Positions 7,519 to 63,791 of a DNA stretch of 64,000 nucleotides are shown in pieces. The stretch is from an uncultured Planctomycetia bacterium. GTDB lineage: Bacteria; Omnitrophota; Gorgyraeia; 1-14-0-20-64-10. The first letter of the stretch is position 1; each line of letters begins with the position of its first letter. Made by a program: the position numbers and the translations under genes. The notes beneath the pieces were generated by a model that was given only the letters and a program-made list of their open reading frames with translations, was not told the DNA's origin and ran no database searches. The stretch spans positions 733-64,732 of the forward strand of contig CAZQXN010000008.1 in NCBI GenBank assembly GCA_964597545.1. Direction: 5' to 3'.

Positions 7519-7521
7519 TTG

Positions 7522-10541: not shown

Positions 10542-11105
10542 ATGAGTTTGGCCAACAAGCTTTCCATCTTTCGGATCCTCCTGGTTCCGGCCTTTGTGGC
10601 GTGCCTGATCTACTACCGCCCAGAAGAATCAGAGTGGCTGCGGTTTCTAGCCGTGGCCCTGTTTGGTCTCGGGGTGATCACCGATGCGGTGGATGGGTAC
10701 ATTGCCCGAGCAGAGCATCAGGCCACCCGCTTGGGAGCGATCTTGGATCCGGCGGCCGACAAACTGTTCTTGGTGACGGCCTTCTTGTGCTTAAGCTTGA
10801 TCTCCACCCTCCCCGAGCAATTCCGCTTGCCTGCTTGGGTTCCGATTTTGGTTTTCAGTCGGGATTTGATTATTGTTTGCGGCTGGCTGTTGATCGTTTT
10901 GGTGACCGGGGACCTTCAGGCCAAGCCCTCCAAGCTCGGTAAGGTCACCACCTTTTTCCAGATGATGACGATTGTCAGCGTCTTGCTGGGGCTTCCCTTT
11001 TCTCGGATGGTTCTGGTTTTGGCGATGGTCTTGACGGTCCTTTCCGGCATCGGCTACTTGCGCCGCGGCAACCGCCTGCTCAACGGGGCTGCCAAAGCCC
11101 CGTAA
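10542..11105 (+). CDS. pgsA: CDP-diacylglycerol--glycerol-3-phosphate 3-phosphatidyltransferase
   Basis: CDP-alcohol phosphatidyltransferase motif DAVDGYIAR...GAILDPAADK; multi-TM. Confidence 0.85.
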   Translation: MSLANKLSIFRILLVPAFVACLIYYRPEESEWLRFLAVALFGLGVITDAVDGYIARAEHQATRLGAILDPAADKLFLVTAFLCLSLISTLPEQFRLPAWVPILVFSRDLIIVCGWLLIVLVTGDLQAKPSKLGKVTTFFQMMTIVSVLLGLPFSRMVLVLAMVLTVLSGIGYLRRGNRLLNGAAKAP

Positions 11106-11141
11106 GCGGCGGACACCATTCACAGGCAGAGAAGCACAGCC

Positions 11142-45512: not shown

Positions 45513-45624
45513 CCCCACCACCTGACTTAGCCCCCATGGGGCTGTCGAATGAGAGATTCGACCCGTCTTGGGCGGGTCAGTTGCAAGGGATGCATCTGCC
45601 CAAGACGGAAAGGCAGGTGGTGGG

Positions 45625-47406
45625 GTGACACAGCGCACCCATACCTGCGGGGAGCTTAACCCCAAAGCAGAGAAGAAGACCGTCACCCTTTTGGGCTGGG
45701 TTCACCGGCGCAGAGACCATGGGGGACTTGTCTTCATTGACCTGAGAGATCGCTGGGGGTTAACCCAGGTGGTCTTCAGCCCCGAGGAGGACAAAGCCCT
45801 TCATCAGCAGGCCGAGGGCTTAAGACCCGAGTTCTGCGTGGCCGTCAAAGGCCAGGTGCGGCTGCGCCCCAAAGGAACAGAGAATCCGAAGCTCGCAACT
45901 GGCATGATTGAGGTGGTCTCCCAGTCGCTCGAGATTCTCAATGAGAGTGCCACGCCGCCCTTTGAGGTGGATGAGGAAAAGGAGCAGTCAGAGGAGCTGC
46001 GCTTTGGCTACCGCTATCTGGATTTGCGGCGGCCTTCGCAGACAAAACATCTGATCTGCCGGCATCAAGTGATTCGCGTGATCCGTGAGGTGCTCGACCG
46101 CGAAGCGTTCCTGGAGATCGAGACACCGGTTTTAACCAAGTCGACCCCGGAGGGCGCGCGCGATTACCTGGTTCCCAGCCGCTTGAATCCCGGCAAGTTC
46201 TATGCCCTTCCGCAGTCTCCTCAGCTGTACAAGCAGTTGTTAATGGTGGCCGGTGTGGACCGCTACTACCAGATTGCCCGCTGCTTCCGGGATGAAGACC
46301 TCAGAGCCGACCGCCAACCGGAGTTTACCCAGCTGGATTTGGAGATGTCCTTTGTGGATGAAGAAGGGATCTTCACCCTGATGGAGAAGCTCTTCAAAGC
46401 GATCTGGAAGCAGGTGTTGGGTCAGGATCTTAAAACACCCTTTCCGCGGCTGACCTATGCCGAATGCATGGAGCGCTTTGGCACCGATAAACCGGATTTG
46501 CGCTATGCCATGACGCTGACCGATTTGACCTCGCTTTTCTCAGGCACGAACTTCAAGCGGTTCCAGCAGGTGATCTCCGACGGCGGCGTTATTCGCGGAT
46601 TGGCCGCGCCGGGCGGGGCGGATTTAAGCGCCAAGGAGACAGAGGACTTGATTGCCTTGGCCCAAGCGCAGGGTGCCAAAGGGATGGTGCCGGTGTGCGT
46701 GACCGATCAGGGTCTTGTCTCACCGGTTGCCAAGCACCTGGAGGCCTCACTGCTTGATGAGACCGTCAAGACCCTCAAGGGCAAGAAGGGGGATCTTATC
46801 CTCTTAGTGGCAGACAGCCCCCGTACGGCCTCCGCAGCCCTCGGTGCGGTGCGATCTGTTTTGGCTGAGCGCCTGCGCTTGATTCCAGAGAAGCAGTTCT
46901 CTTTTACCTGGATTACCGGCTTTCCTCTGTTTCAGCGCAACACAACTGAGAACCGCTGGGATTCAGAGCACCATCCCTTTACCGCGCCCTTTGATGAGGA
47001 CCTCTCTTTCTTAGAGAGCGATCCAGGCCGCGTGCGGGCCCGATCCTATGATCTGGTACTCAACGGCATGGAGTTGGGCTCCGGCTCGATCCGAATCCAT
47101 CACAGAGAAACCCAAGAAGCGATCTTTCGCATCCTGGCGCTCGATCCCCAAGAGGTACAGGCGCGCTTTGGTTTTCTATTGGATGCCTTCCGGTACGGCG
47201 CCCCGCCGCACGGCGGGATCGCCCCGGGCATTGACCGCTTGATTGCGCTGATCACCGGGGCCGAATCCATTCGGGAGGTGATTGCCTTTCCCAAGACCCA
47301 AAAGGGTGTCGACTTGATGATGAAGGCTCCGGATCAAGTTTCAGAACGGCAGCTCAAAGAACTTGGCATCAACTTGAAATCGATTCAACCCCCGTCAGGA
47401 GCTTAA
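45625..47406 (+). CDS. aspS: aspartyl-tRNA synthetase
   Basis: RTHTCGELN N-terminus (GTG start after an AGGTGG RBS), OB-fold, class II motifs FRDEDLRADRQPEFTQLD, GGIAPGIDRL. Confidence 0.9.
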   Translation: MTQRTHTCGELNPKAEKKTVTLLGWVHRRRDHGGLVFIDLRDRWGLTQVVFSPEEDKALHQQAEGLRPEFCVAVKGQVRLRPKGTENPKLATGMIEVVSQSLEILNESATPPFEVDEEKEQSEELRFGYRYLDLRRPSQTKHLICRHQVIRVIREVLDREAFLEIETPVLTKSTPEGARDYLVPSRLNPGKFYALPQSPQLYKQLLMVAGVDRYYQIARCFRDEDLRADRQPEFTQLDLEMSFVDEEGIFTLMEKLFKAIWKQVLGQDLKTPFPRLTYAECMERFGTDKPDLRYAMTLTDLTSLFSGTNFKRFQQVISDGGVIRGLAAPGGADLSAKETEDLIALAQAQGAKGMVPVCVTDQGLVSPVAKHLEASLLDETVKTLKGKKGDLILLVADSPRTASAALGAVRSVLAERLRLIPEKQFSFTWITGFPLFQRNTTENRWDSEHHPFTAPFDEDLSFLESDPGRVRARSYDLVLNGMELGSGSIRIHHRETQEAIFRILALDPQEVQARFGFLLDAFRYGAPPHGGIAPGIDRLIALITGAESIREVIAFPKTQKGVDLMMKAPDQVSERQLKELGINLKSIQPPSGA

Positions 47407-47516
47407 AGGATGATGAGATCCCTCGCCCGGAAAGCGGGCTCGGGATTCAATTCGCACAGCAACTTATGTCACGCGCAACTTGCTCCATAAGTTGCGTGCT
47501 CATTGAAGGAGGACTC

Positions 47517-48104
47517 ATGAAAAACCGTCTCTTACTCACTCTCGGTATTCCCCTGGCGTTTCTCAACACGGGATGCGCTCGCATTACGACTCAGGTGGTA
47601 GAGAAGCCCCGCGTCGATCAGGAACTGATGGGCAACCGGGGCACGTTAAGCGGTTCGGCTCCCGAGGTGGGACCCCGCAAGACAACCCGCAAGATGTTCC
47701 AGATCGATGTGGATCTTGCAACCGTTGACGAGATGAACCCTTGGCGTCCTGCCGAGGAAGAGGAGGCTGCCTCGGCAGTCCCGCAGAGGGACGAGGCTCC
47801 AGAAGAACTTAAGCATAAGGGGGCTGAAACCGACGAGGACATGACCATCTTAATGCCGGAGCCCGAGCCGATGCCCGAGCCCATGGTGGAGCCCGAGCCT
47901 GAACTGATCACCTACACGGTCAAGAAGGGCGACACCTTAGAAAAAATCGCAGAACACGTCTATGGGGATGCCCGGCAGTGGCGCCCGATCTACGAAGTCA
48001 ACCGGGACCAACTGTCCTCTCCGGATCGAGTCTATGAGGGGCAGGAGCTGCTCATCCCACCGGGCAAGGCGGCGTTTCCCGAAGAAGCTCCGGAGATCAA
48101 ATAA
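47517..48104 (+). CDS. LysM-domain lipoprotein with acidic Pro/Glu-rich linker
   Basis: lipobox LNTGC; PEPEPMPEPMVEPEPE low-complexity tract; C-terminal LysM YTVKKGDTLEKIAEHVYGD...YEGQELLIP. Confidence 0.8.
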   Translation: MKNRLLLTLGIPLAFLNTGCARITTQVVEKPRVDQELMGNRGTLSGSAPEVGPRKTTRKMFQIDVDLATVDEMNPWRPAEEEEAASAVPQRDEAPEELKHKGAETDEDMTILMPEPEPMPEPMVEPEPELITYTVKKGDTLEKIAEHVYGDARQWRPIYEVNRDQLSSPDRVYEGQELLIPPGKAAFPEEAPEIK

Positions 48105-48110
48105 CCCAGA

Positions 48111-49061
48111 ATGGAGCGCACCTTTCACTTAGCGTCAGACCACGAGGCCGCCACCCTTTACGGCCTGCACGATGAGCACCTCAAGCTCATCGAGGCGGAG
48201 TTTGGCGTCAAGACGGTAGCACGCGGTCAGGAAATGACACTCTCCGGCGATCAAAAGTCGGTTGAAAGCGCTTCTGCCCTGGTGCAGCAGCTCTTGAACA
48301 TCATTCGAGGGGGCAATTACCTCCGCCGGCATGAAGTGGTGTATGCCATCCGGGCGATGTCAGAGCAGAAGGACTTAGACTTAAAGCCCATCTACACCGA
48401 CAAGATCGAGGTCTTCTCCAAGCGGCAGTTTGTCACCCCCAAAACCGCCGGACAGAAGGATTACATCGATGCCATCCGAAGGCATGACATTGTCTTTGCG
48501 ACGGGTGTGGCGGGAACCGGCAAAAGCTATTTGGCCATGGCCATGGCGGTCAACGCCCTCAAGCGCCAGGAGGTTTCCCGGATTATCTTGACCCGACCGG
48601 CGGTGGAAGCCGGCGAGTCACTGGGATTTTTGCCGGGCACCTTTGAGGAGAAGGTGAATCCGTATCTGCGTCCCCTCTACGATGCCCTGTATGATTTGAT
48701 GGATGTCGACCGAATTCAGAAGAACCTTGAGAAGGGGATCCTGGAGGTTGCTCCCTTGGCGTACATGCGGGGCCGGACCTTGAACGACTCCTTTGTTGTT
48801 TTGGATGAAGCCCAGAACTGTACGCCCGAGCAGATGAAGATGTTCTTGACCCGGCTCGGCTTTGACTCCAAAACCGTGATTACCGGCGACATCACGCAGT
48901 CCGACCTGCCCCAGGGCAAGGTCTCCGGATTGGACCATGCTCGGGAGATCCTTAAAGGGATTTCGGGCATTTCCTTTGTGGAGTTGGCCGACAGCGATGT
49001 GGTGCGCCACGAGCTGGTCCAGAGGATTGTCCGGGCCTACGAGAAAAACGACACGGCTTGA
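48111..49061 (+). CDS. phoH: PhoH-like ATPase
   Basis: FATGVAGTGKSYLA Walker A; PhoH family; 316 aa. Confidence 0.9.
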   Translation: MERTFHLASDHEAATLYGLHDEHLKLIEAEFGVKTVARGQEMTLSGDQKSVESASALVQQLLNIIRGGNYLRRHEVVYAIRAMSEQKDLDLKPIYTDKIEVFSKRQFVTPKTAGQKDYIDAIRRHDIVFATGVAGTGKSYLAMAMAVNALKRQEVSRIILTRPAVEAGESLGFLPGTFEEKVNPYLRPLYDALYDLMDVDRIQKNLEKGILEVAPLAYMRGRTLNDSFVVLDEAQNCTPEQMKMFLTRLGFDSKTVITGDITQSDLPQGKVSGLDHAREILKGISGISFVELADSDVVRHELVQRIVRAYEKNDTA

Positions 49062-49072
49062 ATGAGACTTCA

Positions 49073-49525
49073 ATGCCGGTAGAGCTGCTGAACGCCCAGC
49101 GGCGTGTGCGTTTGGATACACGGCGGTTGAAGCGTCAAGCCCGGTCTTTGCTGGAGGCAGCTGGCTTGGAGCGACAGTTCCTCTCGGTTTTGCTGACGGA
49201 CGATCGCCGCATGGCCCAGGCGCATGAGCGCTGGATGGGAGAGAAGGGTTCTACAGATGTCCTCTCCTTTGCCATGAATGAGGGATCCCGGCGCAAGAGA
49301 CAGCGTCAAGGTGTCGCGCAAAAAGGGCCACCCGAAGTGCTGGGGGATATTGTGATTTCCGTGGAGACAGCGGCACGGTGCCGTCCCAAAGATGTTGATG
49401 GAGAGGCATTTCGGTATCTCCTGCACGGGCTGCTGCATTTGATGGGCCATGATCACCGTTCTCGGGCTGAGAGGCTCCGCATGGATCGAGCGGGTCGACG
49501 CCTCACAAAGGGAGTAACGCCATGA
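49073..49525 (+). CDS. ybeY: rRNA maturation endoribonuclease YbeY
   Basis: HGLLHLMGHDH zinc-binding motif. Confidence 0.85.
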   Translation: MPVELLNAQRRVRLDTRRLKRQARSLLEAAGLERQFLSVLLTDDRRMAQAHERWMGEKGSTDVLSFAMNEGSRRKRQRQGVAQKGPPEVLGDIVISVETAARCRPKDVDGEAFRYLLHGLLHLMGHDHRSRAERLRMDRAGRRLTKGVTP

Positions 49526-50190
49526 TTCGTGCTTTCTCGAAGAACTTTGCCGCAGGACTGCTCATCATCTTTCCGGCGATCCTGACAGTCGCAATCGTTC
49601 AAGCAGTTTTTCAATGGGTCTTCAGCTTTATCATTGATCCTCTGGCCAAGGTGCTGATTCCCGGCACCGCGCTTGAAACCCTTTTGGTGACCCGGCTGGG
49701 GGTTTTTGCGGGGTTTATCCTGGTGGTGTCATTGGTGGGATTTGCCACCCGGGCCCTGATCATTCGGCGCTTCCTCCATTTTGGAGAGGCACTCCTGCGC
49801 CGGGTGCCGATGGTCGGCAAGATCTACTGGACCATCCGGGAGATTGCCAATACCTTCAGGGGGGAGCGCAGGGGGGTATTCACCAACGTGGTACTGCTGG
49901 AGTGGCCCCGTCCTGGAATCTATGCCGTTGGTTTTGTCACCTCAAAGGGCCAAAAAGAGATTCAGGAGAAGACCGGCCAAGCCATCACCAATGTGTTTTT
50001 ACCCACCTCTCCCAACCCCACCTCGGGATATTTGATCATGGTTCCGGTGGATGCTTTGACCTTTCTGGAGATGTCTGTGGAGGATGGGATGCGCCTGGTG
50101 ATCTCCGGCGGGGTTTCTGGGCCGGAAGATCCCAAATTGGCTCACCCGCAGGGTGCTTCAGCGGATGCACCGCCCCAAGGAGGTCGCTAA
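49522..50190 (+). CDS. DUF502-family membrane protein
   Basis: N-terminal TM helices and conserved mid region typical of COG2928/DUF502; ATGA overlap with ybeY. Confidence 0.6.
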   Translation: MIRAFSKNFAAGLLIIFPAILTVAIVQAVFQWVFSFIIDPLAKVLIPGTALETLLVTRLGVFAGFILVVSLVGFATRALIIRRFLHFGEALLRRVPMVGKIYWTIREIANTFRGERRGVFTNVVLLEWPRPGIYAVGFVTSKGQKEIQEKTGQAITNVFLPTSPNPTSGYLIMVPVDALTFLEMSVEDGMRLVISGGVSGPEDPKLAHPQGASADAPPQGGR

Positions 50191-50194
50191 AGCG

Positions 50195-50896
50195 GTGCTC
50201 AAGACCCAGGGCATTCTTTTGAGGCGCCAGGAGATTCGTGAGACCAGCCTCATTGTGATTGCCTTCACGCGTGATCTGGGCAAGGTTCATGGATTGCTCA
50301 AGGGGGTTCGTGGAATGCAGGTGGCGGTCCCTTGGTATTTGGAGCCCTTGACCCTTCAGGCCATGGTGCTCTATGAGCGCAAGCGAACTGCTCTCTCACT
50401 GATTTCTCACTGCGATTTGCTGGATGGTTTTGATGGAATTCGCCGGGATTTTGCGCGCACTGCCTTTGCCCTTTTTTGTCTGGATTGGGTGGATGCCATG
50501 ACCGAGGTCAAAGATCCCCACCCTGAGATCTTTGATCTTCTGCTCAATACCCTTAAATCTCTGGAGGGGGGCGCTGAGCCTAAATCGATGGTTCGCTTCC
50601 TTGAGGTTCAGCTGCTGAAGGCCAGCGGTCTTCTCCCTCAACCGGAGAATCTGACACTCTCACCGGGTGCCCGCCTTTCTCTGAAGCAGATTCTTGAAAC
50701 ACCCTTAGCGCAAATGGATCGGTTGAGGCTTTCTCGTGCAGTGGAAGGAGAGATCAACACAATGACGCAGAATCTTCAGCGGCGTGCGGTAGGCCGAGAG
50801 CTCAAGAGCAGAACCTTTCTCCATCAGCTTGGATTGGAGGGCGCGGTCTCCGCAGCGCCTGCGCCTACTCGTGAGGTTGTCCATGCAGCGGCGTAG
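50195..50896 (+). CDS. recO: DNA repair protein RecO
   Basis: [39 protein letters not shown]-fold N-terminus; GTG 50195 with an AAGGAGG RBS; the ORF-track start 50153 is probably an extension. Confidence 0.8.
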
Positions 50897-51764
50897 CGTT
50901 ACGAAAGGTAAGCGGGCCGACACCTTTCAAGAGCTGATCCTGCGCTTGGAGCGGTTCTGGGCTGATCAAGGTTGTTTGATTGCCCAACCCTTGGAGCTGG
51001 AGATGGGGGCCGGCACCTTTCATCCCCTCACCTTCTTTAAGGCGTTGGGGCCCGATCCCTGGTCGGTTGCCTTTGTCCAGCCCTCCCGCCGACCGACCGA
51101 CGGCCGATACGCAGACAATCCCCTTAGGGCTCAGCGCTATTATCAGTATCAAGTGATCTTAAAGCCCTCTCCGGCCAACGTCCAACAGATCTATCTCAAC
51201 AGCCTCACCCACCTTGGCATTGATCTGAAAGCCCATGATGTACGGTTTGTGCAGGATGACTGGGAGTCGCCCACGCTGGGCGCATGGGGGCTCGGCTGGG
51301 AGGTGTGGCTCGACGGTTTGGAGGTGACACAGTTTACCTACTTCCAGCAGGTTGGCGGCATTGAGCTGGATGTGGTCTCGGCGGAGCTGACCTATGGGCT
51401 TGAGCGCATCGCCATGTTCCTGCAGGGGAAGATGGATCTCTATGCCTTGGCTTGGAACAAACAACACACCTACGGCGATATTCACCGGCAGGAGGAAATT
51501 GAAAGCTCAACCTATAACTTCGAGCATGCCGACACCACCCTGGAGCGCCGGCATTTCGAGGAGGCCTTTGATCAATCCAAGAAACTGCTGGAAGCCGGAC
51601 TCCTTTCCCCGGCGTACGAGCAGCTCTTGAAAACCTCTCATGCCTTTAACCTGTTGGATGCGCGCGGGGCGGTCAGCCAGAGTGAGCGGCCGAGCTTGAT
51701 TGCCGGTGTGCGCGCCTTAGCCAAGCAGTGTGCCGAAAACTATCTGGAGCGGGTGAAGCGATGA
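50883..51764 (+). CDS. glyQ: glycyl-tRNA synthetase alpha subunit
   Basis: [18 protein letters not shown]...[15 protein letters not shown] highly conserved GlyQ. Confidence 0.95.
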
Positions 51765-53974
51765 CGCTCTCAGCCCCCAAGGACTTCTTGCTTGAGATCG
51801 GCTGCGAGGAGTTGCCGGCCGATTACTTGCCAGAGATTCTCCACGAGAACATTGCGCCAGGTCGAGGATTGGCGTCTGTGGCTGCCGGCATCTTGCAGAA
51901 GAAAAGAATCGTCTTTAAGCGCATCACCGTTTATGGCACCCCACGACGACTGGTTCTTTACGTATGCGGGGTTGAGCCGGTGGTGCGCCAAGAGGAAGAG
52001 GGCCCTCCGGTCCAGGTGGCCTTCGACAAGGTTGGAAAACCCACCGCTGCTGCATTGGGCTTTGCCAAGAAGCAGGGGGTTTCAATTTCTAAGCTCAAGC
52101 GCAAGAAGAGTGCGCGCGGCGAGCGCCTGGTCCTCGATCGGGTGATTCCCACTGCACAGGTCTTAGCCGCAGCAGTTCCGGATGTCATTGAGGCCATCCC
52201 CTCCCCTAAAACCATGCGCTGGGAAAACTCAGGCGTACGCTTTGCCCGTCCGATTCGTTGGTTGTTGGCCCTCTATGGTACGCAATCCATTCCTTGTGTT
52301 TTTGCAGATATCAAGAGTGGAAAAACCAGCTTTGTTCCCGATCGCTTCACGGGTCGGGCGATACCGGTAGGATCGGCTTCAAGCTACTTTTCGGCGATCC
52401 GCCAGCAAAAGGTTCAGCTTGAAACGGGAGCTACCCTCCAGGCGTCTGAGGGTCTGCCTAAAGTGATTCCTTCGGTTTGCCCCAAAGAAAAGGCGTTGCT
52501 GGCCGGTTTGAAGGCGGCCGCCAAGAAGGCCGGTGGGCACCTCCCAGATGAGAAAACTGAGGAATTTCAGTGGCTCCTCTCCACCTTGACCTTCTTGGCC
52601 GAAGACCCTCACGTGCAGGCAGGCGTTTTCCGAAAAGAGTATCTCGCGCTTCCCTCTGAGGTGCTCGCCACCGCGATGGCAAAACACTTGAAGCTCATGA
52701 GTGTCGTCTCACCCAGCGGCAAACTCTTGCCTAAGTTTCTGGCGGTCCTGGAAGGCAAGCCCAGCACTCCGGCTCGGATCATCTCCAATTACGAGAAGGT
52801 CTTGGAGGCCCGCTTTTCCGACGCACAGTTCTTTTATCGCGAAGACAGCCGATCGAAATTAGCAGACCGGGTCTCGGTGTTGGATCAGGTGGTCTTTCAT
52901 AAGGAGCTGGGATCCGTCGGCGAACGGATCCCGCGCCTCATTCGCTTGAGCGAGCAGATTGCACAGCAGGCCAAGCTCTCCCCGGAGACCACCGCCCAGA
53001 TTCGAAAAGCAGCGAAATTGGCCAAGGCCGATCTGGCGACACAGATGGTTCGGGAGTTTCCCTCCCTCCAGGGGGTTATCGGCGGGCTCTACGCACGGGA
53101 GGCCGGTGAGGCTCAAGCAGTGGCTGCCGGCATTGCTGAGCATTACGCTCCGCGTACCGCGAGTGATACCATGCCTGTAACCCCAGTAGGGGTGGTGATC
53201 AGCCTTGCCGATCGCATCGATACCCTCTTGGGTTTCTTTGGCGCCGGGATGACCCCAACCGGTTCTCTGGATCCCTATGCCCTCAGGCGTCAGGCCTTGG
53301 GGGTGGTGCGGATCTTAACCGAATCGAAATCGCCAACTTTTGTGGGGCTGTCGATTGACAGACTCTTGGATGAGGGGATACAATCTTGGGGTTCCAAGCT
53401 TCACCCTCCACAAGACGTTAAGCGCCAGCTTCACGCCTTCCTTCAAGAGCGTTTCGAGTGGCTGGCCTCCGCGCGCGACCGGGTTGAGCGCCCGTTGATT
53501 CGCTGCGTACTTTCGTCCAGCAGTGACGATCTGGCCGATGCGTGGGAACGGCTTGCCATCCTTCGCCAGCTTTGGGCCCATCCGGCCAAACGGACCCAGC
53601 TCATCAAGGCCGCGAAAGTGGCTGAACGGACAAGCCGCATTGTCCGCAGCCAAAAAGAGGCCCAGGAACTGGGAGCGGCAGATCCCAGCAAATTGAAAGA
53701 CGCTGCAGAAAAAGAGCTTTGGTCGCTGTGGGAGCGCGTATCTCCACAGCTTAAAACGCAGATTCAAGACCGCCGGTATGAAGAGGGGACTCGGGTGTAC
53801 GCAACGCTTTACCCGGCCCTCCACACCTTCTTTGATTCTGTGATGGTCATGGATGAGGATCCGGCGCTCCGGCGCAACCGGTTGAGCCTCATGAATGAGA
53901 TTCATCAAGCACTGGCAGGCCGCTTTGCGGATCTGTCCGAGCTGCCACTTTCCGGTATCGAGATCACCGAATAG
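51762..53974 (+). CDS. glyS: glycyl-tRNA synthetase beta subunit
   Basis: [21 protein letters not shown]-terminus; ATGA overlap with glyQ; ~737 aa. Confidence 0.9.
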
Positions 53975-53985
53975 AAAGGAAACTG

Positions 53986-56670
<2,685 letters not shown>

Positions 56671-56675
56671 AACCT

Positions 56676-57515
56676 ATGTCTGACCCGCTGCGGTTGTACC
56701 TAAAAGACATCAAGGATATTCCGCTCTTGACCCCCGAAGAGGAGATATCCCTCTCCAAGCGTGTTCACAAGGGGGACTCAAAAGCCCGACACCAGATGAT
56801 TCGCTCGAACTTAAGGCTTGTCATCAACATTGCCAAGCGGTACAGCCGCCTGGGCCTTCCGATCTCGGATTTGATTGAAGAGGGGAACTTAGGGCTCATG
56901 CGGGCGGTCTCAAAGTTCAACCCGGGAAAGGGATTTCGCTTCTCCACCTATGCGGCTTGGTGGATCAAACAGTACGTGCTTCGGGCCATCGCCAACCAGG
57001 GCAAGACCATCCGCATCCCGGTTTACATGGTGGACATCATCTCCAAGTACCGCAAGGTGACCGAGAAACTCAACCAGAAGCTCGGACGCAGGCCCACCGT
57101 CGGAGAAACCGCCCGCTCCATGAAACTTCCGGTCAAGAAGGTTCGAGAGATCGAGCAGGTCTTGCTGCAACCGACCTCGCTGGATGCTCCGATCGGCGAG
57201 GAGGGCAACGCCGAGTTCATTGACCTGGTCGACCGCAACGCCGGCGGTTTGCCTCCCAGGGATGAACTTGCCGAGCTGCTGACCCGCGAGCAGGTGGAGG
57301 ATCTCTTAAGCCGCCTGACCGATCGAGAGCGGGATGTTCTCTCCTTCCGGTATGGACTGAAGGACGGCATGACCTATACCTTAGGAGAGACCGCAAAGCA
57401 TTTGGGAATCACCCGAGAGCGGGTTCGACAGATTCAAAACTCCGCCGAGAAGAAACTCAACAACTTTTTGGCCGCTCAAGAAGAGCAGATGGCCAAGGAG
57501 GGAAAGCGAGCTTGA
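56676..57515 (+). CDS. RNA polymerase sigma factor, sigma-70 family (regions 1.2-4, no region 1.1)
   Basis: DPLRLYLKDI (region 1.2), region 2 LIEEGNLGLMRAVSKF...YAAWWIKQ, region 4 HTH TLGETAKHLGITRERVRQIQ; 279 aa. Confidence 0.85.
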   Translation: MSDPLRLYLKDIKDIPLLTPEEEISLSKRVHKGDSKARHQMIRSNLRLVINIAKRYSRLGLPISDLIEEGNLGLMRAVSKFNPGKGFRFSTYAAWWIKQYVLRAIANQGKTIRIPVYMVDIISKYRKVTEKLNQKLGRRPTVGETARSMKLPVKKVREIEQVLLQPTSLDAPIGEEGNAEFIDLVDRNAGGLPPRDELAELLTREQVEDLLSRLTDRERDVLSFRYGLKDGMTYTLGETAKHLGITRERVRQIQNSAEKKLNNFLAAQEEQMAKEGKRA

Positions 57516-58051
57516 AAGTGCAGATCAATCTTAAAGATTTTGTTCGAGATGTTCCGGACTTCCCCAAGCCCGGCATTGTTTTCAAGGATTTGACCCCGCT
57601 CTGGCAGGATCCGGCCGCTTTCGGCGCGATGGTAGAGCAGCTTGCCGAGCCCTACCGGGAAAAACAGGTTCAGACGATCGTCGGCATTGAATCCAGGGGC
57701 CTCATCTTGGGAGCCGCGCTGGCCTCTGCTTTAAACACGGGGCTTGTTCCGGTCCGCAAGGAAGGCAAGCTTCCCTGGAAGACCGTCAAGGCTTCCTATT
57801 CCTTGGAATACGGGGAAGCGACCACCGAGCTCCATCAGGATGCAATTGCCCCCGGCACTCGCGCTTTGATTGTTGACGACCTGCTGGCAACCGGCGGCAC
57901 TGCCGAAGCAGCCATCCAGTTGGTTCAAAAGCTTAAAGGGCAGATTCTCGGCGTCACCTTCTTGGTGGAGCTGGGTTTCCTTAAAGGGAGAGAGCGCCTC
58001 AAGCAGTATGGCGTTGACATCCGCTCCTTGATCCAATACGACACCCCGTAA
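57512..58051 (+). CDS. apt: adenine phosphoribosyltransferase
   Basis: FPKPGIVFKDLTPL...LIVDDLLATGGT PRPP-binding motif. Confidence 0.9.
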   Translation: MKVQINLKDFVRDVPDFPKPGIVFKDLTPLWQDPAAFGAMVEQLAEPYREKQVQTIVGIESRGLILGAALASALNTGLVPVRKEGKLPWKTVKASYSLEYGEATTELHQDAIAPGTRALIVDDLLATGGTAEAAIQLVQKLKGQILGVTFLVELGFLKGRERLKQYGVDIRSLIQYDTP

Positions 58052-58054
58052 CTT

Positions 58055-58162
58055 GTACGAAGGGGTCAGACCCTTTCGTACAAAAGTGCGCAAAACTATA
58101 TAAAAGGGTCAGGCACTTTTTGGCCCTCTCCTGGAGCTTCGCCGGCCAAAAGTGCCAGACCC
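58055..58162. repeat. palindromic repeat family A copy plus a related 57-bp near-perfect hairpin, directly upstream of tRNA-Arg
   Basis: gtacgaaggggtcagaccctttcgtac (58055-58081); gggtcaggcactttttggcc...ggccaaaagtgccagaccc (58106-58162). Confidence 0.65.
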
Positions 58163-58165
58163 TCT

Positions 58166-58239
58166 GCGCCTGTAGCTCAGATGGATAGAGCACCTCACTC
58201 CTAAGGAGGGTGTCGGCCGTTCGAATCGGCCCAGGCGCG
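58166..58239 (+). tRNA. tRNA-Arg (anticodon CCT), CCA not encoded
   Basis: acceptor GCGCCTG/CAGGCGC, D-arm GCTCAGATGGATAGAGC, anticodon loop CTCCTAA (one A.G mismatch at the base of the anticodon stem), T-arm GGCCGTTCGAATCGGCC. Confidence 0.75.
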
Positions 58240-59679
58240 CTCTTCTTTATCAGGGTCTGTTTGGGACACCAAATCGAAGGGCGAACTGTAGGAAAACAAA
58301 AGGGTTCGGTCATTCAAACGGAAGTTCGAGCCGGCTGATTTCAAAAATTTCCTTAGGGCGGCGGGATTTTCTTGGCCAGCGACGGAACCTGCCTCCGCGC
58401 AAACAGTTAAGAACTCCTTAGCTGGTTCGAGCCACCCACCACCCGTTCTTTCGATCTCGCCAAGCGCCTCCTTCAAATCCTGCTTCTCGCCGAGCAGCTT
58501 GGCCTTCTTACGCTGGTACTCCTCCGGGTCGATCTGGCGGGCGATGTAAAGATCCAGCAGGCGCTCCATCTTCTCGTCGCACGCCTTAAGTTGATCGGCA
58601 ATCCGGCGAGATCGAGAGATTGAGGCGCTGCTGGCTTCCTTGGCCTGGGATTCCCACTGCGCGAGGATTTTCTCCTTTGTTTCAACGCTGATCGCTACCC
58701 TCAAGATGGCCCACTTCACCTGGTCCAGTAGCGCCTCCTCTCGAAGAAACTTCTGAGAACAGGGGCCCTTCTTGCGGGTACAGCGGTAGTAAACCAAGCG
58801 CTTCTTCTGGATCTCGGCGGTGATCATAGAGCCGCACTCAGCGCAGCGCATGAAGCCGACAAAGGTGAACTTCACCCTGCCGCGCTTGTGGGATCTTCGC
58901 TGCTGCGCCAGCACCTGCTGCACCCGATCGAACAGTTTCTTCGAGATAAGAGGGGGGTGGCTGCCTTCATACAGCTCACCCTTGAACAGCATGGTGCCGT
59001 AATAAAAGGGATTCCTTAAGGTGTCTGCGACCGCGCTCTTGTGGACAGGCTTGCCCGTTCTGCCGGTCAGGCCCCAGCGCAGCGCCTCGCGTAAGATCTC
59101 CTGAAGGGAGTATTCGCCTGAGGCGTATACCTCAAAAATCTTCCTGACCAACACCGCCTTCTCCGGATCAGGCGCGACTGTATGGTTCTTGTAGTCGTGC
59201 ACATACCCCATGGGCGCTGCGCACGGCCACTCCCCGCGCCTCAACTTCGCCCGGAAGCCACGCCTGACGTTCTCGGCCAAATTATCCACGTAATACTTCG
59301 ACTGGCCGAAGGCGATGGATAGCATGAACTTGCCCTGGGCGGTGTTGTCGTAGCGATAGGTAGGGAACTTAAGAGCCAGCAGTTTGCCCGTATCCAGCAA
59401 GTAGATGATCCGCCCGCCGTCCACAGAATTACGGGCAAGCCTGTCTGGATGCCATGCCAGCACTCCTTGGGCTTTTCCTTGCTCGATCTGCTCCATCATC
59501 AAATTGAAGACCGGCCGGCCCGGCTCCTTGGCTGTCTTGGCCTCCACAAACTCCTCGACTACAGCCAACCCTTCATGCCGGGCGAGCTGCTTCAGCTCGC
59601 ACAACTGCGACTCGAGCGACAAAACCTGCCGGTCTTCCTCGTCCGTGGATTTCCTGGCGTAAAGAAAGTAAGCTGGCAT
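58201..59679 (-). CDS. large serine recombinase (resolvase/invertase N-terminal domain, recombinase domain, zinc ribbon)
   Basis: MPAYFLYARKSTDEEDRQVLSLESQ (catalytic Ser region), ...WHPDRLARN...; recombinase domain; CAECGS...YYRC zinc ribbon; coiled-coil C-terminus; start placed at ATG 59679 (the ORF-track extends it to 59943); 3' end overlaps tRNA-Arg on the opposite strand. Confidence 0.85.
   Translation of the reverse strand: MPAYFLYARKSTDEEDRQVLSLESQLCELKQLARHEGLAVVEEFVEAKTAKEPGRPVFNLMMEQIEQGKAQGVLAWHPDRLARNSVDGGRIIYLLDTGKLLALKFPTYRYDNTAQGKFMLSIAFGQSKYYVDNLAENVRRGFRAKLRRGEWPCAAPMGYVHDYKNHTVAPDPEKAVLVRKIFEVYASGEYSLQEILREALRWGLTGRTGKPVHKSAVADTLRNPFYYGTMLFKGELYEGSHPPLISKKLFDRVQQVLAQQRRSHKRGRVKFTFVGFMRCAECGSMITAEIQKKRLVYYRCTRKKGPCSQKFLREEALLDQVKWAILRVAISVETKEKILAQWESQAKEASSASISRSRRIADQLKACDEKMERLLDLYIARQIDPEEYQRKKAKLLGEKQDLKEALGEIERTGGGWLEPAKEFLTVCAEAGSVAGQENPAALRKFLKSAGSNFRLNDRTLLFSYSSPFDLVSQTDPDKEERAWADSNGRHPP
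58237..58388. repeat. inverted repeat, left copy (152 bp), overlapping the tRNA-Arg 3' end; encodes the recombinase C-terminus
   Basis: reverse complement of 59720-59906, identical except for a 35-bp indel; read by eye. Confidence 0.8.
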
Positions 59680-59694
59680 GGCATCCCTCCACTG

Positions 59695-59724
59695 TGTCAT
59701 CCCCGCGGAAGCGGGGATCGTTCC
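59695..59724. repeat. half copy of palindromic repeat family B (minus orientation) abutting IR-R
   Basis: reverse complement gaacgatccccgcttccgcggggatgacaca matches the right half of the 18.1/38.2 kb element. Confidence 0.6.
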
Positions 59725-59906
59725 GTCGCTGGCCGAGGATCCAAAGGAGACTGACCGCCGGCAGGCGGGAAGAAAATCCCGCCGCCCTAAGGAAATTTTT
59801 GAAATCAGCCGGCTCGAACTTCCGTTTGAATGACCGAACCCTTTTGTTTTCCTACAGTTCGCCCTTCGATTTGGTGTCCCAAACAGACCCTGATAAAGAA
59901 GAGCGC
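59720..59906. repeat. inverted repeat, right copy (187 bp, contains a 35-bp insertion relative to IR-L)
   Basis: reverse complement equals 58237-58388 apart from the insertion gaggatccaaaggagactgaccgccggcaggcggg. Confidence 0.8.
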
Positions 59907-60466
59907 CGGCTGGCCGACGATGTTCGAACTTATTTTGAAACACTGGCCCCAGGAAAGCAAGACCCGCTTCTGGGCCCCAACAGTCTATAACCCCGCGCCC
60001 TCCTGCCCGCCCCGCCTATTTACCCCTGCCAGGGGCGGGGTCGGGCGCGATGAGGAGTGGCCGCTTGGCCGCGGCCACAGGCCGCCTTAGGCCAGGCGGC
60101 CTCTAACCGCTCCGCCCGACAGCCCTGTACGGGCTGCCGCTGCCTGTCCCTCCGGCGCCCTTGTTTTACCTGTTTCCTTGGGTTCTTACCGCCCCCCGTC
60201 CCTTCAAGGTCGGCGCCGTTAGGCCGTGCCCCGGACGCGCTTGCCGCCGCCCAAGCGCGATCGGGGCACCGCTTTGTTCTCCTGCCACCCACCTTTTCTC
60301 GGGGAGAAAAGGTGGAGTGATGATAAACAGACCCCCTGCTATTGAGCTAGCAACAAGACAAAAAGAAGCGTAGCAAGTATAATGGTATTGAGCAATCACC
60401 CATCGGTTCTCAGTCGAAGCATAGCAGCGCACATCGCCAATATCAGGGAGCAGGACGAAGCAACCA

Positions 60467-61708
60467 ATGTCAGCGACAGATACAACAACATTAAGGAACG
60501 GAAGAACTCAAGCTGCCATATACGCTACCTCTGATTGTCCGACGGATTCCAAGGAGGTAACTCACAGGACACGCCTTGAAGAGCTCAACCTCAACTGGAG
60601 CGAGAAAGATCTTCCAGAGAAGGAGCGCACTAAACATGTTCATAGGTTGCACCCTTATCTCGGGAAGTTTATCCCACAACTTGTGGAGACTTTTCTAAGA
60701 AAGTATTTTTCGCCAGGCCAAACAGTACTTGATCCCTTTGTGGGATCGGGGACAACGGTTGTGCAAGCTAATGAGTTAGGCATAAACTCCATCGGGTACG
60801 ATGTATCTGCATTCAATAGCCTGCTGTGTCGAGCCAAGACAGCAAGATATGATCCCAATAAAGTGCAACAAGAGGTACTCGACATTCTTGAGAAAGTGCG
60901 GGTGGAAACACAAGAAGATGGACAAGAGAATTTATGGAGAAATCCAAGAAACTCAAAGATTCCCAAAACAGACAATGCGTATCTCAAGCAGTGGTTTGCT
61001 CCTCAATCGCTTCGAGAGCTTTTGACATATCGGTCTTTTATTGATCAGGGGGATTATAGATACAAGGATTTGCTCAAGATCATACTTTCCCGCTCTGCTC
61101 GGTCAGCTCGACTTACTACCCATTTTGATTTGGATTTCCCTAGACAACCACAAACGGAGTCCTACTGGTGTTATAAACATTCCAGAGAATGTACCCCCAC
61201 CACACAGGCTTTTGCATTTCTAAGACGCTATAGCTTAGATTCTCTAGAGCGGATCAGAGACTTTGCTGTTCTTCGCACGAACTCCCATGTTTCCATTCGG
61301 CACGCAGATAGTCGGAGGGCTCACTTCCCGCCCATTGATGGTGTAGTTACCAGTCCTCCGTATGTGGGGTTGATCGATTATCACGAGCAACATGCTTATG
61401 CGTACCATCTATTGGGACTAAAAGACAAACGTAGCATGGAGATTGGGCCCGCGGCGAATGGGTCGAGCCAGAAGGCGAAAGATCAGTATCAGAAAGATAT
61501 TGGCGAAGTATTCAGCCATGCCGCCAAAGCTATGCCTTCCGGTGGGCGCATGATTGTTGTGGCAGGCGATCGAGCTAACCTATACGGAGAAATAGCCAAA
61601 CTAGCAAGCGTAGAGATTGAGACCGTTGTTCGGCGACATGTGAACCGGCGAACAGGTCGCCGAGCCAACGAGTTTTACGAATCGGTTTTCATCTGGCGAA
61701 AGAGATGA
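60467..61708 (+). CDS. DNA methyltransferase (N6-adenine/N4-cytosine class, SPPY motif)
   Basis: HPYLGKFIPQLVETFLRKYFSPGQTVLDPFVGSGTT (motif X/I, AdoMet binding) and TSPPYVGLIDY (motif IV); low GC; TATAAT box about 85 bp upstream. Confidence 0.75.
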   Translation: MSATDTTTLRNGRTQAAIYATSDCPTDSKEVTHRTRLEELNLNWSEKDLPEKERTKHVHRLHPYLGKFIPQLVETFLRKYFSPGQTVLDPFVGSGTTVVQANELGINSIGYDVSAFNSLLCRAKTARYDPNKVQQEVLDILEKVRVETQEDGQENLWRNPRNSKIPKTDNAYLKQWFAPQSLRELLTYRSFIDQGDYRYKDLLKIILSRSARSARLTTHFDLDFPRQPQTESYWCYKHSRECTPTTQAFAFLRRYSLDSLERIRDFAVLRTNSHVSIRHADSRRAHFPPIDGVVTSPPYVGLIDYHEQHAYAYHLLGLKDKRSMEIGPAANGSSQKAKDQYQKDIGEVFSHAAKAMPSGGRMIVVAGDRANLYGEIAKLASVEIETVVRRHVNRRTGRRANEFYESVFIWRKR

Positions 61709-63081
61709 AAAGAGCCAAGCCTCAAGAGATAAAATCCGCCATCCAAAGCGTTATCAAGATGTTGATGGATGGAGTTATGGATAAGGTGCTGAACAAAGAT
61801 CCCTTTATTGAAGAGGAGCACCACGCGAAGAAACCGCTCTACGCAGCTCTGGTGCCTGATGAGGTTTTTAAGGGGTCGCATTTTGAAAGAAGGTTCGTAA
61901 CTCCATTTGGACGCGCTTGGGAGGCTCTGGCAATCGTAGTGGCAGAAAAGGCGCTGGGTATTGGGGCTGAGAATCATAGCATCGAGGGCACAGTCAAGTC
62001 AGAACGCTTGAGGCGGATCAGCCAGGTGCTTAACCGGTTAGAACACCCAGAAAGAGGCAGGGAAAGATTCCGGCCTCATTGGACAGAGGAACTCAAATTT
62101 GTTTTAGCGGGTGGCGGCAAGAACATACCTGTAAAGGTCATTTGTGATGTTTATGCTGAGGATAGGACGAACAACAAGAAGTATGCTTTTGAGCTAAAAG
62201 CTCCTCTCCCCAACAGCGACCAGACGAAAGTGAGCAAGGAGAAAATCCTCAAGCTCTATTGCATGGAGCCCAAACAAGTGGATGGAGCGTACTATGCGCT
62301 TCCCTATAACCCATACGGAAAGAAAGAGAACTACAGTTGGAGTTTTCCTGCTCGTTGGTTTGATATGCAGCGCGATGAGGTTGTTCTTATAGGAAACGAG
62401 TTTTGGGACAAAATTGGCGGACCTGGTACATACCAGTCATTTATAGATGCCATCAATGAGATAGGGCCTGAGTATAAGGAGAGAATTTACCGAGAATTCC
62501 TGGGTATTGAGCCACCAGCCGAGAGTGTACAAGCAGGCGTTATTTCATCCGCCGAAGAAATAGGTGCTACAGCCGCTCAAGCGCCGGAACCGGAAATAAA
62601 GATTGTTTCCAGGAAGGAAGCCGAACCTTTCGTGACTCACCTACCTGTTTATTCGCTCGAAGTTGCTGCTGGGGGCTATGGTAGAGCCAAGGAAACTGAA
62701 GAGAGGGGGTGGGTAAGGGTAAATGGCCGGAAGCTGGCCGAGGGTATGTTTGTGGCTCAAGTCATCGGGCATTCAATGGAACCCAAAATTCCCGATAGAA
62801 GTTACTGTCTCTTCAGGTGGCACAAAGGGGGTACAAGGCAAGGACAGATTATCCTAGCTCGGCATAGCGGTTTGGTTGATTCTGAGACTGGAGGTAAATT
62901 TACTGTCAAGAGGTATGAGAGCGAAAAGGTTCATAACTCGGACGACACTTGGCATCATAGCAGGATCGTTCTGAAACCGATTAATCCGTCGTATCGCCCC
63001 ATCGAAGTTACTCCTTCCGAATCCGAGGAAGTGAGCATCATTGCTGAGTTTGTTGGTCTTCTGTATGAAGGGAATGTTTAG
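61705..63081 (+). CDS. fusion protein: PD-(D/E)xK restriction-endonuclease-like N-terminal domain plus LexA-type S24 autopeptidase C-terminal domain
   Basis: N-domain ICDVYAED...YAFELK (D...ExK) and paralogous to the next gene; C-domain has the LexA cleavage-site-like VAAGGY, catalytic Ser in GHSMEP, GQIILAR, catalytic Lys in FTVKRY, and tail IVLKPINPSYRPIEV; ATGA overlap with the methyltransferase. Confidence 0.7.
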   Translation: MKRAKPQEIKSAIQSVIKMLMDGVMDKVLNKDPFIEEEHHAKKPLYAALVPDEVFKGSHFERRFVTPFGRAWEALAIVVAEKALGIGAENHSIEGTVKSERLRRISQVLNRLEHPERGRERFRPHWTEELKFVLAGGGKNIPVKVICDVYAEDRTNNKKYAFELKAPLPNSDQTKVSKEKILKLYCMEPKQVDGAYYALPYNPYGKKENYSWSFPARWFDMQRDEVVLIGNEFWDKIGGPGTYQSFIDAINEIGPEYKERIYREFLGIEPPAESVQAGVISSAEEIGATAAQAPEPEIKIVSRKEAEPFVTHLPVYSLEVAAGGYGRAKETEERGWVRVNGRKLAEGMFVAQVIGHSMEPKIPDRSYCLFRWHKGGTRQGQIILARHSGLVDSETGGKFTVKRYESEKVHNSDDTWHHSRIVLKPINPSYRPIEVTPSESEEVSIIAEFVGLLYEGNV

Positions 63082-63122
63082 CTGATGGATGGTCGACTGA
63101 CTAACGCTAAAGAGGTGTTTGT

Positions 63123-63791
63123 TTGAGAAGAGCTTTCATGAAGATGACAAGCGAAAAACGCTCGAGAATCGAAAAAATCATCGAGCGATTCGTTAGCAAT
63201 GTCCACAGGCTATCGGAACTTAACGCGGATAAGATCGTCGTTAACCCTTTCCTGGCGGCTGCGTTGGGACTTAGAGAAAAACCGGAGATACTCGACTTCT
63301 TTCTTACGCAAAGGATGCAACGAGGGATCGTAACTTCGTTTGGTACTACGATACAAAAAATTGCGAAGACGCTCGATTCCGAAGCGAAAGAGGAAGATGT
63401 AGACCTCGTGTTCATAAAACGCAGCAAGAAATATTATGTCCAACTCAAAAGTGGCCCCGAGGGATTTACTCGGCCCGCGCTTAGGAAAACAAAAGCGACG
63501 TTTCGTAAGCTGAAGAGGCGTGATCCGTCTTGCGTTACGGTTATAGGTTTCTCATACGGCACCAAAGAACAGCTTTCTCCTATATGGGGACGTGAAGCGT
63601 ACAAGAGTGCCGATAGAGTATTGGTTGGAAAAAAGTTCTGGGATTTCTTTGCGGGCAAAGGATTTTATGATGAGCTAATAAAGGTCTTTCAAATGAGTAG
63701 ACCAGCAACTGGTAGGCGGAGGCAATCCAAGAGATCTACATTCAGGCAAATCCACAGACAGCTATATCGACGTTTACTACCATTGTTCTAA
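63123..63791 (+). CDS. PD-(D/E)xK restriction-endonuclease-like protein, paralog of the N-domain of the preceding gene
   Basis: VTSFGTTIQKIAKTL ~ VTPFGRAWEALAIVV; EDVDLVFIKRSKKYYVQLK ~ ICDVYAEDRTNNKKYAFELK; KKFWDFFAGKGFYDELIKVF ~ NEFWDKIGGPGTYQSFIDAI; TTG start with AGAGGTG RBS. Confidence 0.6.
   Translation: MRRAFMKMTSEKRSRIEKIIERFVSNVHRLSELNADKIVVNPFLAAALGLREKPEILDFFLTQRMQRGIVTSFGTTIQKIAKTLDSEAKEEDVDLVFIKRSKKYYVQLKSGPEGFTRPALRKTKATFRKLKRRDPSCVTVIGFSYGTKEQLSPIWGREAYKSADRVLVGKKFWDFFAGKGFYDELIKVFQMSRPATGRRRQSKRSTFRQIHRQLYRRLLPLF

Follow-up and report, generated by a model that had tools for sequence, protein, structure and literature searches.

Within a 64,000-nt stretch of DNA from an uncultured Planctomycetia bacterium (contig CAZQXN010000008.1, positions 733 to 64,732; hereafter the window), the gene of a large serine recombinase (LSR) overlaps a tRNA-Arg(CCT) gene, and its 3′ end recurs as an inverted copy upstream of its own start codon. 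The best explanation of this arrangement, and one that we regard as probable, is that a genomic island encoding an LSR, whose open reading frame (ORF) runs through the island's own attachment site (attP), was inserted at the 3′ end of tRNA-Arg(CCT) and retained a second, inverted attP. The evidence comes from the inverted repeat itself, from the occurrence of the same layout in relatives, from a 5-bp offset between the two kinds of sequence that flank the repeat, and from a syntenic contig in which the tRNA gene is unoccupied.

The recombinase gene and its inverted repeat

Self-comparison of the window showed that 58237-58373 and 59770-59906 are exact reverse complements of each other (137 bp, 0 mismatches), and a perfect inverted repeat of this length cannot have arisen by chance. 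The right-hand copy (IR-R) then carries 35 additional bp (59735-59769), past which 58374-58388 is again exactly complementary to 59720-59734 (15 bp; reported by the repeat search as 18 nt at 94%). Self-alignment thus bears out the preliminary description of this DNA, which had given inverted repeats at 58237-58388 and 59720-59906 differing by a single 35-bp indel, with the left-hand copy (IR-L) starting inside the tRNA gene's 3′ end. The remaining best repeats within 57000-61500 are 14-32 nt long and imperfect, and no second copy of the arm or of the tail described below was found elsewhere in the 64-kb window. From outer end to outer end the arms enclose 1670 bp (58237-59906). The parts of this region are as follows.

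58166-58240, plus strand: tRNA-Arg(CCT), the integration target (ARAGORN; Rfam tRNA, 57.6 bits)
58201-59679, minus strand: LSR gene, 492 aa (Pfam domains; homologue alignment)
58237-58241, no strand: core GCGCT, common to the empty attB of the syntenic contig L172, the putative inverted attP copy (AGCGC, 59902-59906) and the tRNA junction
58237-58373, minus strand: IR-L, arm A, approximately the last 45 recombinase codons up to the core; together with the tRNA, a putative attR-type junction A-core-B′
58374-58388, minus strand: codons for GSVAGQ, the coding partner of the 5′-leader box and exact reverse complement of 59720-59734
59680-59719, minus strand: LSR leader, with a GGAGGG Shine-Dalgarno sequence at 59685-59690 and a GC hairpin before it (the GATCCCCGC TTCC GCGGGGATC region)
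59720-59734, minus strand: 5′-leader box, complementary to 58374-58388 of the ORF
59735-59769, no strand: 35-bp insert, in the upstream arm only, with a small hairpin CCGCC TGCC GGCGG
59770-59906, plus strand: IR-R, an orphan second copy of arm A that takes in the core copy at 59902-59906
59907-59990, plus strand: start of T, a putative attP-type half-site P′, with TTCGAAC at 59923-59929; encodes the native tail RLADDVRTYFETLAPGKQDPLLGPNSL and its stop codon

The encoded protein has the Pfam domains Resolvase (PF00239, E = 5.7e-21), Recombinase (PF07508, E = 5.5e-16) and Zn_ribbon_recom (PF13408, E = 1.8e-10). Its catalytic motif YARKST includes Ser11, and Y7, R9, K10, S11 and T12 are invariant in 38 aligned sequences. 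It aligns with the SPbeta integrase (9dxh) over residues 7-408, coiled-coil region included. Judged by its sequence, it has the catalytic domain and both DNA-binding domains (DBD1 and DBD2) of the large serine recombinase family and is a member of it. The arm encodes residues ~430-478, which lie past the coiled coil in the SPbeta integrase alignment and presumably form an essential part of the second DNA-binding domain.

The longest mechanical ORF begins at GTG 59943. The true start is ATG 59679: a GGAGGG precedes it by 6 nt, and in the alignment it coincides with the N-terminus (MP.YFLYARKST) of 37 homologues. This codon lies in the unique segment between the arms, 41 nt inside the inner end of IR-R, and an earlier placement of the start within IR-R therefore does not hold. 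The stop codon TAG (58201-58203) does overlap the tRNA anticodon (58200-58202), as had been proposed, and the C-terminal codons do lie inside IR-L, although they number ~50 and not ~60. The final 13 codons (AWADSNGRHPP) are an antisense reading of the tRNA, whose body corresponds to an attB-type half-site (B′), with the T-loop TTCGAA at 58220-58225. The plus-strand copy within IR-R reads onward into ...EERRLADDVRTYFETLAPGKQDPLLGPNSL and a stop codon; the alternative C-terminus that had been noticed at this end is in fact the conserved native tail of the LSR family. A promoter scan found no sigma-70-like promoter in the leader (59680-59719), and no candidate for a recombination directionality factor (RDF) was identified in the window.

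The layout in relatives and the proposed attachment sites

We surveyed 165 loci whose LSR proteins are 45-67% identical to that of the window, from Nitrospirota, Omnitrophota, Planctomycetota, many Patescibacteria (candidate phyla radiation, CPR), Ignavibacteriota, Verrucomicrobiota and Bacteroidota. Relatives of the protein number ~8000 in the protein database, and at least 566 and at least 593 loci were confirmed in genome and metagenome contigs, respectively. Among 2.9 million viral contigs (IMG/VR), only 3 relatives turned up; the family thus does not consist of phage integrases, and a phage origin of the LSR was rejected on this count.

The arm repeat was present in 132 of the 165 loci, where the last ~30-55 codons of the gene recur at a site 10-300 bp upstream of the start codon; in 4 more loci the upstream arm is 1.4-3.4 kb distant. 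Arms are 49-178 bp long (median 104), with 56 pairs at 100% identity and 114 at 95% or more. An intact convergent tRNA gene adjoins the 3′ end of the LSR gene in 112 loci, representing 18 isoacceptors among which Ser and Gln dominate, and the arm terminates 4-8 nt inside the tRNA. Hairpin cassettes of 35-100 bp occur between arm and leader box, at the position of the 35-bp insert in the window. Clusters of LSRs at 90% identity include several different tRNA-derived tails, native tails and other fusions, which indicates recent movement between tRNA targets, and one metagenome-assembled genome (JBDRLN01) contains two loci (L038, L066). A third kind of C-terminus was seen in three proteins (P0125, P0130, P0239), in which the integrase extends past the core by ~70 aa of helix-turn-helix (HTH)-like sequence (..LYQKLAKKVTELRLLGMTYKDIAKSLNV..).

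The layout also recurs in one complete CPR genome (CP174360.1, L016), in the large contigs L026 and L058 (0.8-1.8 Mb) and in assemblies from isolates. In two assemblies of the cultured Bacteroidota species Schleiferia thermophila (L174 and L175; QPJS01000004.1 and BHZF01000005.1) we found a complete three-site element at 4626-11524, with site 3 at tRNA-Ser(gct) (11435-11524), the upstream arm at 9864-9940, and copies at 9747-9871 and 4626-4750, 100% identical to each other, of the conserved flank that we call T below. Its cargo comprises an HTH gene, a methyltransferase, a HinfI nuclease and an AAA gene broken by an insertion sequence (IS), and the element offers a usable experimental system.

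These data bear on two readings in which the repeat would carry no meaning for the element. One is that IR-R is a decaying remnant, either an old inverted, truncated copy of the integrase or an att scar, and is functionless. Genes for tRNAs do gather tandem and decayed islands, and in locus L081 the outer half of the tRNA-side arm has diverged (88.7% identity), as if it came from another element. Against this stand the recurrence of the arm at the same position in ~90% of the 165 loci and across phyla, arm identities of 95-100% while the proteins have diverged to 45%, and the persistence of the repeat in streamlined CPR genomes, where a remnant would not be expected to last; nor are the loci mostly recent clonal copies, given 18 tRNA targets and many host phyla. 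We consider a remnant very improbable. Even less credence is due to the other, an assembly artefact, the inverted duplication having been produced by a fold-back or chimeric join. Of the contigs in the genome-contig set, about half stop at the upstream arm, and one 11.6-kb contig (L123) has a perfect 2071-bp terminal inverted duplication of the whole integrase unit (1-2071 versus 9496-11566), which could be a genuine twin copy or an artefact of fold-back assembly. However, contig breaks are expected from a real inverted repeat of about k-mer length, and the same structure was recovered across independent assemblies, samples and assemblers, including CP174360.1, the large contigs L026 and L058, and the two S. 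thermophila isolate assemblies.

The flanks of the two arms differ. On the gene side the arm is followed by the tRNA body, and on the upstream side by a sequence that is conserved across unrelated hosts. We refer to the arm as A, to the shared 4-9 nt as the core, and to the conserved upstream flank as T. The consensus of T is TGTtTcTTGAAnAAAaT(T/C)CGAACtTTTTT, and the reading frame continues through it as ..L.(E/K)(I/V)RT(F/Y)F.. to a stop. The core comprises the final bases of the acceptor stem and the discriminator, often with CCA, and owing to this origin in the tRNA end, CCA included, most relatives have a Trp codon (TGG) at the core. A third site, host-core-T, was found in ~30 loci with enough flank. 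It lies another 0.9-6.6 kb upstream and has the same orientation as the gene; its T copy mostly matches the other one at 100% identity across 65 to more than 200 bp, and its host part is often a terminator hairpin. The integrated order is thus host-core-T, cargo, inverted T-core-A, LSR gene, A-core-tRNA. In integrase terms, the three sites would be attL, an intact inverted attP and attR, and in the window, 59770-59906 with the sequence from 59907 onward would make up the complete inverted attP (A-core-T).

This assignment is strengthened by the spacing of a shared motif. TTCGAAC lies at +16 in T and at +11 in the tRNA, counted from the end of arm identity, a 5-bp shift that holds for 42 of 44 loci; when the two flanks are compared column by column, similarity likewise peaks at an offset of -5 (0.39 versus 0.17-0.28 elsewhere). 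In large serine integrases, the outer motif is 5 bp closer to the center in attB-type than in attP-type half-sites (PMC11722253). The offset between T and tRNA matches this rule, which argues that IR-R and its flank represent an intact inverted attP kept in the island. The Arg codon of the tail that falls within the motif is CGA in 46 of 53 tails, compared with 19% of Arg codons in these genes generally. This bias suggests that the native tail is conserved mainly as a DNA-binding site, the constraint being on the DNA itself, and the codon test led us to drop the idea of the tail as a functional peptide. Host trailers had no common motif, and only one half-site per site is recognizable by sequence.

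An empty site was available in L172, a contig found through a pyruvate phosphate dikinase (P0242) 96% identical to that of the window. Organism-named hits of this enzyme, at ~65% identity, belong mostly to Candidatus Omnitrophica, a weak hint that the host may be an Omnitrophota-like bacterium. L172 is syntenic with 45415-58241 at 89-94% nucleotide identity, and its tRNA-Arg(CCT) is 100% identical to that of the window through 58241, the position at which synteny ends. Past the tRNA, L172 continues with TTGACACCGTACCCC.. (TTGACACCG..), followed by genes for a PHP protein and an alginate-export-like protein, rsmE and miaB, on to dnaG. None of these housekeeping genes is present in the window up to 64000, and the L172 trailer sequence is absent from the window even when 3 mismatches are allowed. 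The island therefore starts at 58237-58242, is at least 5.76 kb long and runs past 64000. Occupied and empty sites compare at the left junction as expected for a conservative insertion, whereas the right junction lies beyond the window, within which no third T copy was found. From comparison of window 58225-58250, window 59895-59920 and L172 14110-14140, the crossover is inferred to have occurred within the core GCGCT at 58237-58241. Taken as a whole, the comparison indicates that an integrated genomic island with restriction-modification genes has its tRNA-proximal end in the window.

The preliminary description had instead seen a self-contained invertible or transposon-like unit of 1.7 kb. 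In its IS-like form, this view holds that 58237-59906 (1.67 kb), with terminal inverted repeats of 137-187 bp and a serine transposase, was inserted alone. The outer-to-outer length is indeed nearly constant among relatives (1549-1884 bp, median 1668), GCGC stands at both outer ends, and the module appears to have two active ends, since it lies between two tRNA genes in three loci and between T flanks in four (see below). Yet the outer flank of IR-R is conserved element DNA (T) and not target DNA; excising 58237-59906 alone would not restore the host locus, the L172 trailer being missing for at least 5.7 kb; and a third T copy bounds the cargo in ~30 relatives. We also rejected, because of the conserved flank and the real empty site, a minimal version in which the tRNA would be intact and a near-palindromic "attB" would remain once 58237-59906 and one GCGC were taken out. 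An IS-like unit is thus quite improbable, and the same description was right in holding that this is not a simple att-flanked island, because a second attachment site is present.

According to the explanation that we prefer, attP would be organized as A-core-T, in which A supplies the last ~45 codons, the core corresponds to the last nucleotides of the target tRNA (GCGCT in the window), and T is an attP-type half-site that imitates the tRNA T-arm while encoding the last ~20-28 codons. Recombination of attP with attB at the 3′ end of tRNA-Arg(CCT), with strand exchange by the LSR within GCGCT between A-core-T and the tRNA 3′ end, would regenerate an intact tRNA. Integration would leave A-core-tRNA (IR-L, attR-type) on the gene side, so that the gene ends in antisense tRNA codons. 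A second, identical attP would lie inverted directly upstream of the LSR gene, with the restriction-modification cargo after it, and a third site, host-core-T (attL-type), is predicted beyond the window, where the far junction should read ..GTTCGAACATCGTCGGCCAGCCG-GCGCT-TGACACCGTACCCC.. (..AAGTTCGAACATCGTCGGCCAGCCG/GCGCT/TGACACCGTACCCCACTTCC..) and be followed by a PHP-family gene as in L172. The free form would be a circle that two inverted A-core-T repeats, each at least ~230 bp, divide into an LSR segment and a cargo segment, and the arms might be held identical by intramolecular gene conversion, like other closely spaced inverted repeats.

Orientation of the recombinase segment and the 5′ leader

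We classified the loci by the orientation of the segment between the arms. The dominant arrangement, with T upstream and the tRNA downstream, was found in 76 clean cases and ~110 overall. The opposite orientation, in which the tRNA lies upstream on the same strand and adjoins the orphan arm while the gene has its native tail, was found in L081 and ~7 others; in L081 the outer halves of the two arms differ, which leaves no doubt about its orientation. In L166 and L168-L170 a native-tail LSR is co-directional with the HTH gene and the cargo. Elsewhere the LSR segment lies between two tRNA genes, namely L140 (33-1940; Ser-gct and Ser-tga, facing), L127 (two Gln) and L163, or between two different T flanks (L030, L082, L134, L161). 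The double-tRNA loci are what recombination of the retained attP with another tRNA gene would be expected to produce, in an element-mediated chromosomal rearrangement. Together with the double-T and opposite-orientation loci, they point to both A-core ends being reactive.

These observations raise the possibility that the second attP gives the LSR segment two ends and allows it to flip, from a tRNA-fused form to a native-tail form co-directional with the cargo and back, and that this attP stays recombination-competent after integration. We put this at somewhat below an even chance. Flipping would proceed by homologous recombination between the arms or through the LSR itself, and a retained attP that is a live site would explain the loci with tRNAs on both sides.

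A further trait, in part independent of the repeat, is found in the 5′ leader, and the 15-bp block past the 35-bp insert of the window is an instance of it. In the region up to 80 nt upstream of the start codon, with the contiguous arm excluded, an exact reverse-complement match of 12-22 nt between leader and ORF was found in 80 of 130 loci, compared with 1 of 130 in each of the same-strand and shuffled controls. The ORF target of the box varies by clade: GSVAWQ at residue ~430 in window-like proteins, KFMLxIAFGQSKYY at residues 114-128, GKIIFLID at residue 89, EGKAPF at residue 169, and others. This looks like selection for pairing and not for a particular sequence. The box may throttle LSR translation by RNA fold-back, an idea that the matches make attractive without bringing it quite to even odds.

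One could go further and regard the upstream copy as mainly an RNA regulator, in which a leader antisense to the 3′ end of the gene (137 nt) plus an internal box folds back into a duplex, so that translation is limited or RNase III decay sets in, the duplicated attP being incidental. In addition to the leader/ORF matches with their clade-dependent targets, the perfect complementarity of the arms despite wide divergence of the family and the hairpin cassettes between arm and box would fit this view. It leaves unexplained, however, why the copy always runs on across the core and into T, why another T stands at the cargo's far end, and why in L140, L127 and L163 the junction between the upstream arm and a tRNA falls exactly at the core; moreover, the arm may not be transcribed within the LSR mRNA. 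As the main function of the copy, RNA regulation is therefore improbable, although it is compatible, as an added layer, with an integrated island that retained its second attP.

A broader proposal is that these elements form a distinct "twin-attP" class, having a two-segment circle, a retained attP that is put to use (in one or more of flipping, reactions with other tRNA genes and cargo swapping) and RNA fold-back control. We find this doubtful in its entirety. If it is true, the retained site could serve as a switch of C-terminus and cargo coupling, in tRNA-to-tRNA inversions that split the element (L140, L127, L163) or in cargo exchange; serine integrases would have a new solution for directionality and control, possibly without an RDF, and the family would be a natural supply of integrases recognizing the universally conserved tRNA T-arm.

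Several observations weigh against the retained-attP explanation or its extensions. The island's far end is situated outside the window, and no excised circle or attP-b junction was observed. The arm A showed no similarity peak with T at any offset in a search for dyad symmetry; the site is thus not a textbook symmetric attP, and an imperfect inverted repeat of two similar half-sites was not found. Inversion between the arms, which had been suggested from the outset, is plausible in view of L081 and the few others in the opposite orientation, but an all-against-all comparison of the genes returned redundant pairs only, and none of the elements was observed in both orientations. With ~90% of loci in one orientation, frequent neutral flipping is also disfavored. 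To our knowledge, recombination of attP with attL or attR by an LSR has not been described, and LSR-driven flipping is without precedent. Native-tail contigs of short-read assemblies often begin inside an arm, as L166 and L168-L170 do, and ambiguous paths in the assembly graph could account for some of the "flipped" contigs. Because tail conservation is largely at the DNA level, swapping the tail may lack functional consequence. Finally, the Schleiferia L174 box (GGCCAAAAGCGGGCTTTTTC) is not complementary to the ORF and is duplicated before the HTH gene. For the leader box as a universal ORF antisense this case was decisive, and we rejected that idea; the box is possibly an operator.

Known systems, cargo and neighboring sequence

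The LSR of the window shares its domain set (resolvase with the YxRxST serine, recombinase, zinc ribbon and coiled coil) with phiC31, Bxb1, A118/LI and SPbeta SprA. As in phage and island LSRs, a short core is common to attP and attB, and the 5-bp offset is likewise present. Unlike phage LSRs, the targets here are tRNA 3′ ends and one half-site of attP imitates the T-arm; the ORF extends across attP, the integrated element keeps a second complete attP in inverted form, and the A half-site has no dyad symmetry to T. Serine integrases are central genome-engineering tools that use one attP, one attB and an RDF for reversal, a scheme regarded as well understood. The present family departs from this logic by addressing tRNA 3′ ends through T-arm imitation, by placing the gene across its own attP and by retaining the second inverted attP. 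Its layout opens directionality control, attP-driven inversions between tRNA genes and the engineering use of half-site mimicry to testing.

Recombinase genes flanked by inverted repeats are known from other contexts. The Salmonella Hin H segment has the recombinase gene inside an inverted-repeat-bounded segment, the phage P1 Cin C segment has the crossover site at the outer edge of long inverted repeats, and the yeast 2-micron circle (FLP/FRT) is split into two unique segments by two site-bearing inverted repeats. Hin and Cin are small serine invertases that act with Fis and an enhancer, FLP is a tyrosine recombinase, and in all of these the sites are equivalent and inversion is frequent. In the window element, by contrast, the two sites differ on the outside (T versus tRNA) and replication genes are absent. 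With 492 aa, LSR domains and arms of 49-178 bp, the family does not belong with Hin/Gin/Cin/Pin (~190 aa, C-terminal HTH, ~26-bp sites), nor does it belong with IS607/Tn4451-type elements, as its repeats do not abut target DNA on both sides. Fold-back inhibition is known for the transposase mRNAs of IS10 and IS50, and similarly a leader complementary to the downstream recombinase mRNA could limit translation here; unlike in IS10/IS50, the pairing partner lies 250-1300 nt into the ORF and is clade-dependent.

Among tyrosine integrases, those of the SSV type ("suicidal") in archaeal viruses and plasmids have attP inside the ORF and a tRNA target, such that integration alters the gene (PMC7253208). 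In these the gene is split in two large parts, whereas the serine recombinase of the window element swaps its last ~13-28 codons and the element carries a spare inverted copy of the 3′ end with attP; it is thus not a member of that group. The mycobacteriophages BPs and Brujita also have attP in an ORF, and integration into a tRNA gene replaces the C-terminus and changes the properties of the protein (PMC4557955). In those phages it is the repressor whose ORF is affected, a tyrosine recombinase serves as integrase and attP is single, while here the integrase itself is affected and attP is duplicated. None of the compared systems unites an LSR, T-arm mimicry, an ORF through attP and a retained inverted attP. 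We did not find a description of this layout in the literature searched, a search outside which most subscription-journal papers lie, and these small cargo-carrying LSR elements are apparently a family new to description.

Beyond the inverted attP, the window contains a non-coding stretch followed by three cargo genes.

59991-60466, plus strand: GC-rich structured non-coding stretch between the tail stop codon and the methyltransferase gene
60467-61708, plus strand: N6/N4 DNA methyltransferase (Pfam)
61705-63081, plus strand: TdeIII-type restriction endonuclease fused to Peptidase_S24 (Pfam)
63123-63791, plus strand: EcoO109I/TdeIII-like endonuclease (Pfam)

The non-coding stretch (61% GC) folds far better than shuffled versions (z = -4.5). 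An Rfam search over 57.5-61 kb matched the tRNA only and gave nothing for 59991-60466. In relatives, the corresponding part of the T repeat contains strong GC hairpins, and a promoter scan found a candidate cargo promoter, AAGACA-17-TATAAT, at 60355-60383. The stretch is probably the remainder of T, with terminator-type hairpins, plus the promoter of the cargo.

The cargo genes of the window have 46-50% GC, compared with 56-60% for the host, and all are co-directional with T; nothing of 60467-63791 occurs at the empty site of L172. Cargo genes of relatives are likewise almost always in the direction of the inverted T, and the first is frequently an XRE-type HTH gene of 67-71 aa. Their content is diverse, including DNA methyltransferases, ThaI, TdeIII, HinfI and GmrSD nucleases, CBASS SMODS and Shedu, as well as an ABC transporter, CrcB and a multicopper oxidase. 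The elements thus ferry small defense and stress cassettes, and much of the gene flow in lineages whose mobile elements are little known may pass through them.

In the fusion protein encoded at 61705-63081, the TdeIII-type domain (aa 10-254) is followed by a C-terminal Peptidase_S24 domain (aa 314-449) of the LexA/UmuD-like self-cleaving kind, an unusual pairing that hints at damage- or signal-triggered activation of the endonuclease. In L026 (489-3818; Ignavibacteriota, 1.8-Mb contig), enolase and other genes lie between the T copies on the strand opposite to the usual cargo, and this segment may be a captured or inverted piece of the host chromosome. In L172, phoH holds an intein (Intein_splicing and LAGLIDADG; L172:2689-4938), and the phoH of the window (~48521-48525) is without this ~1.3-kb insert.

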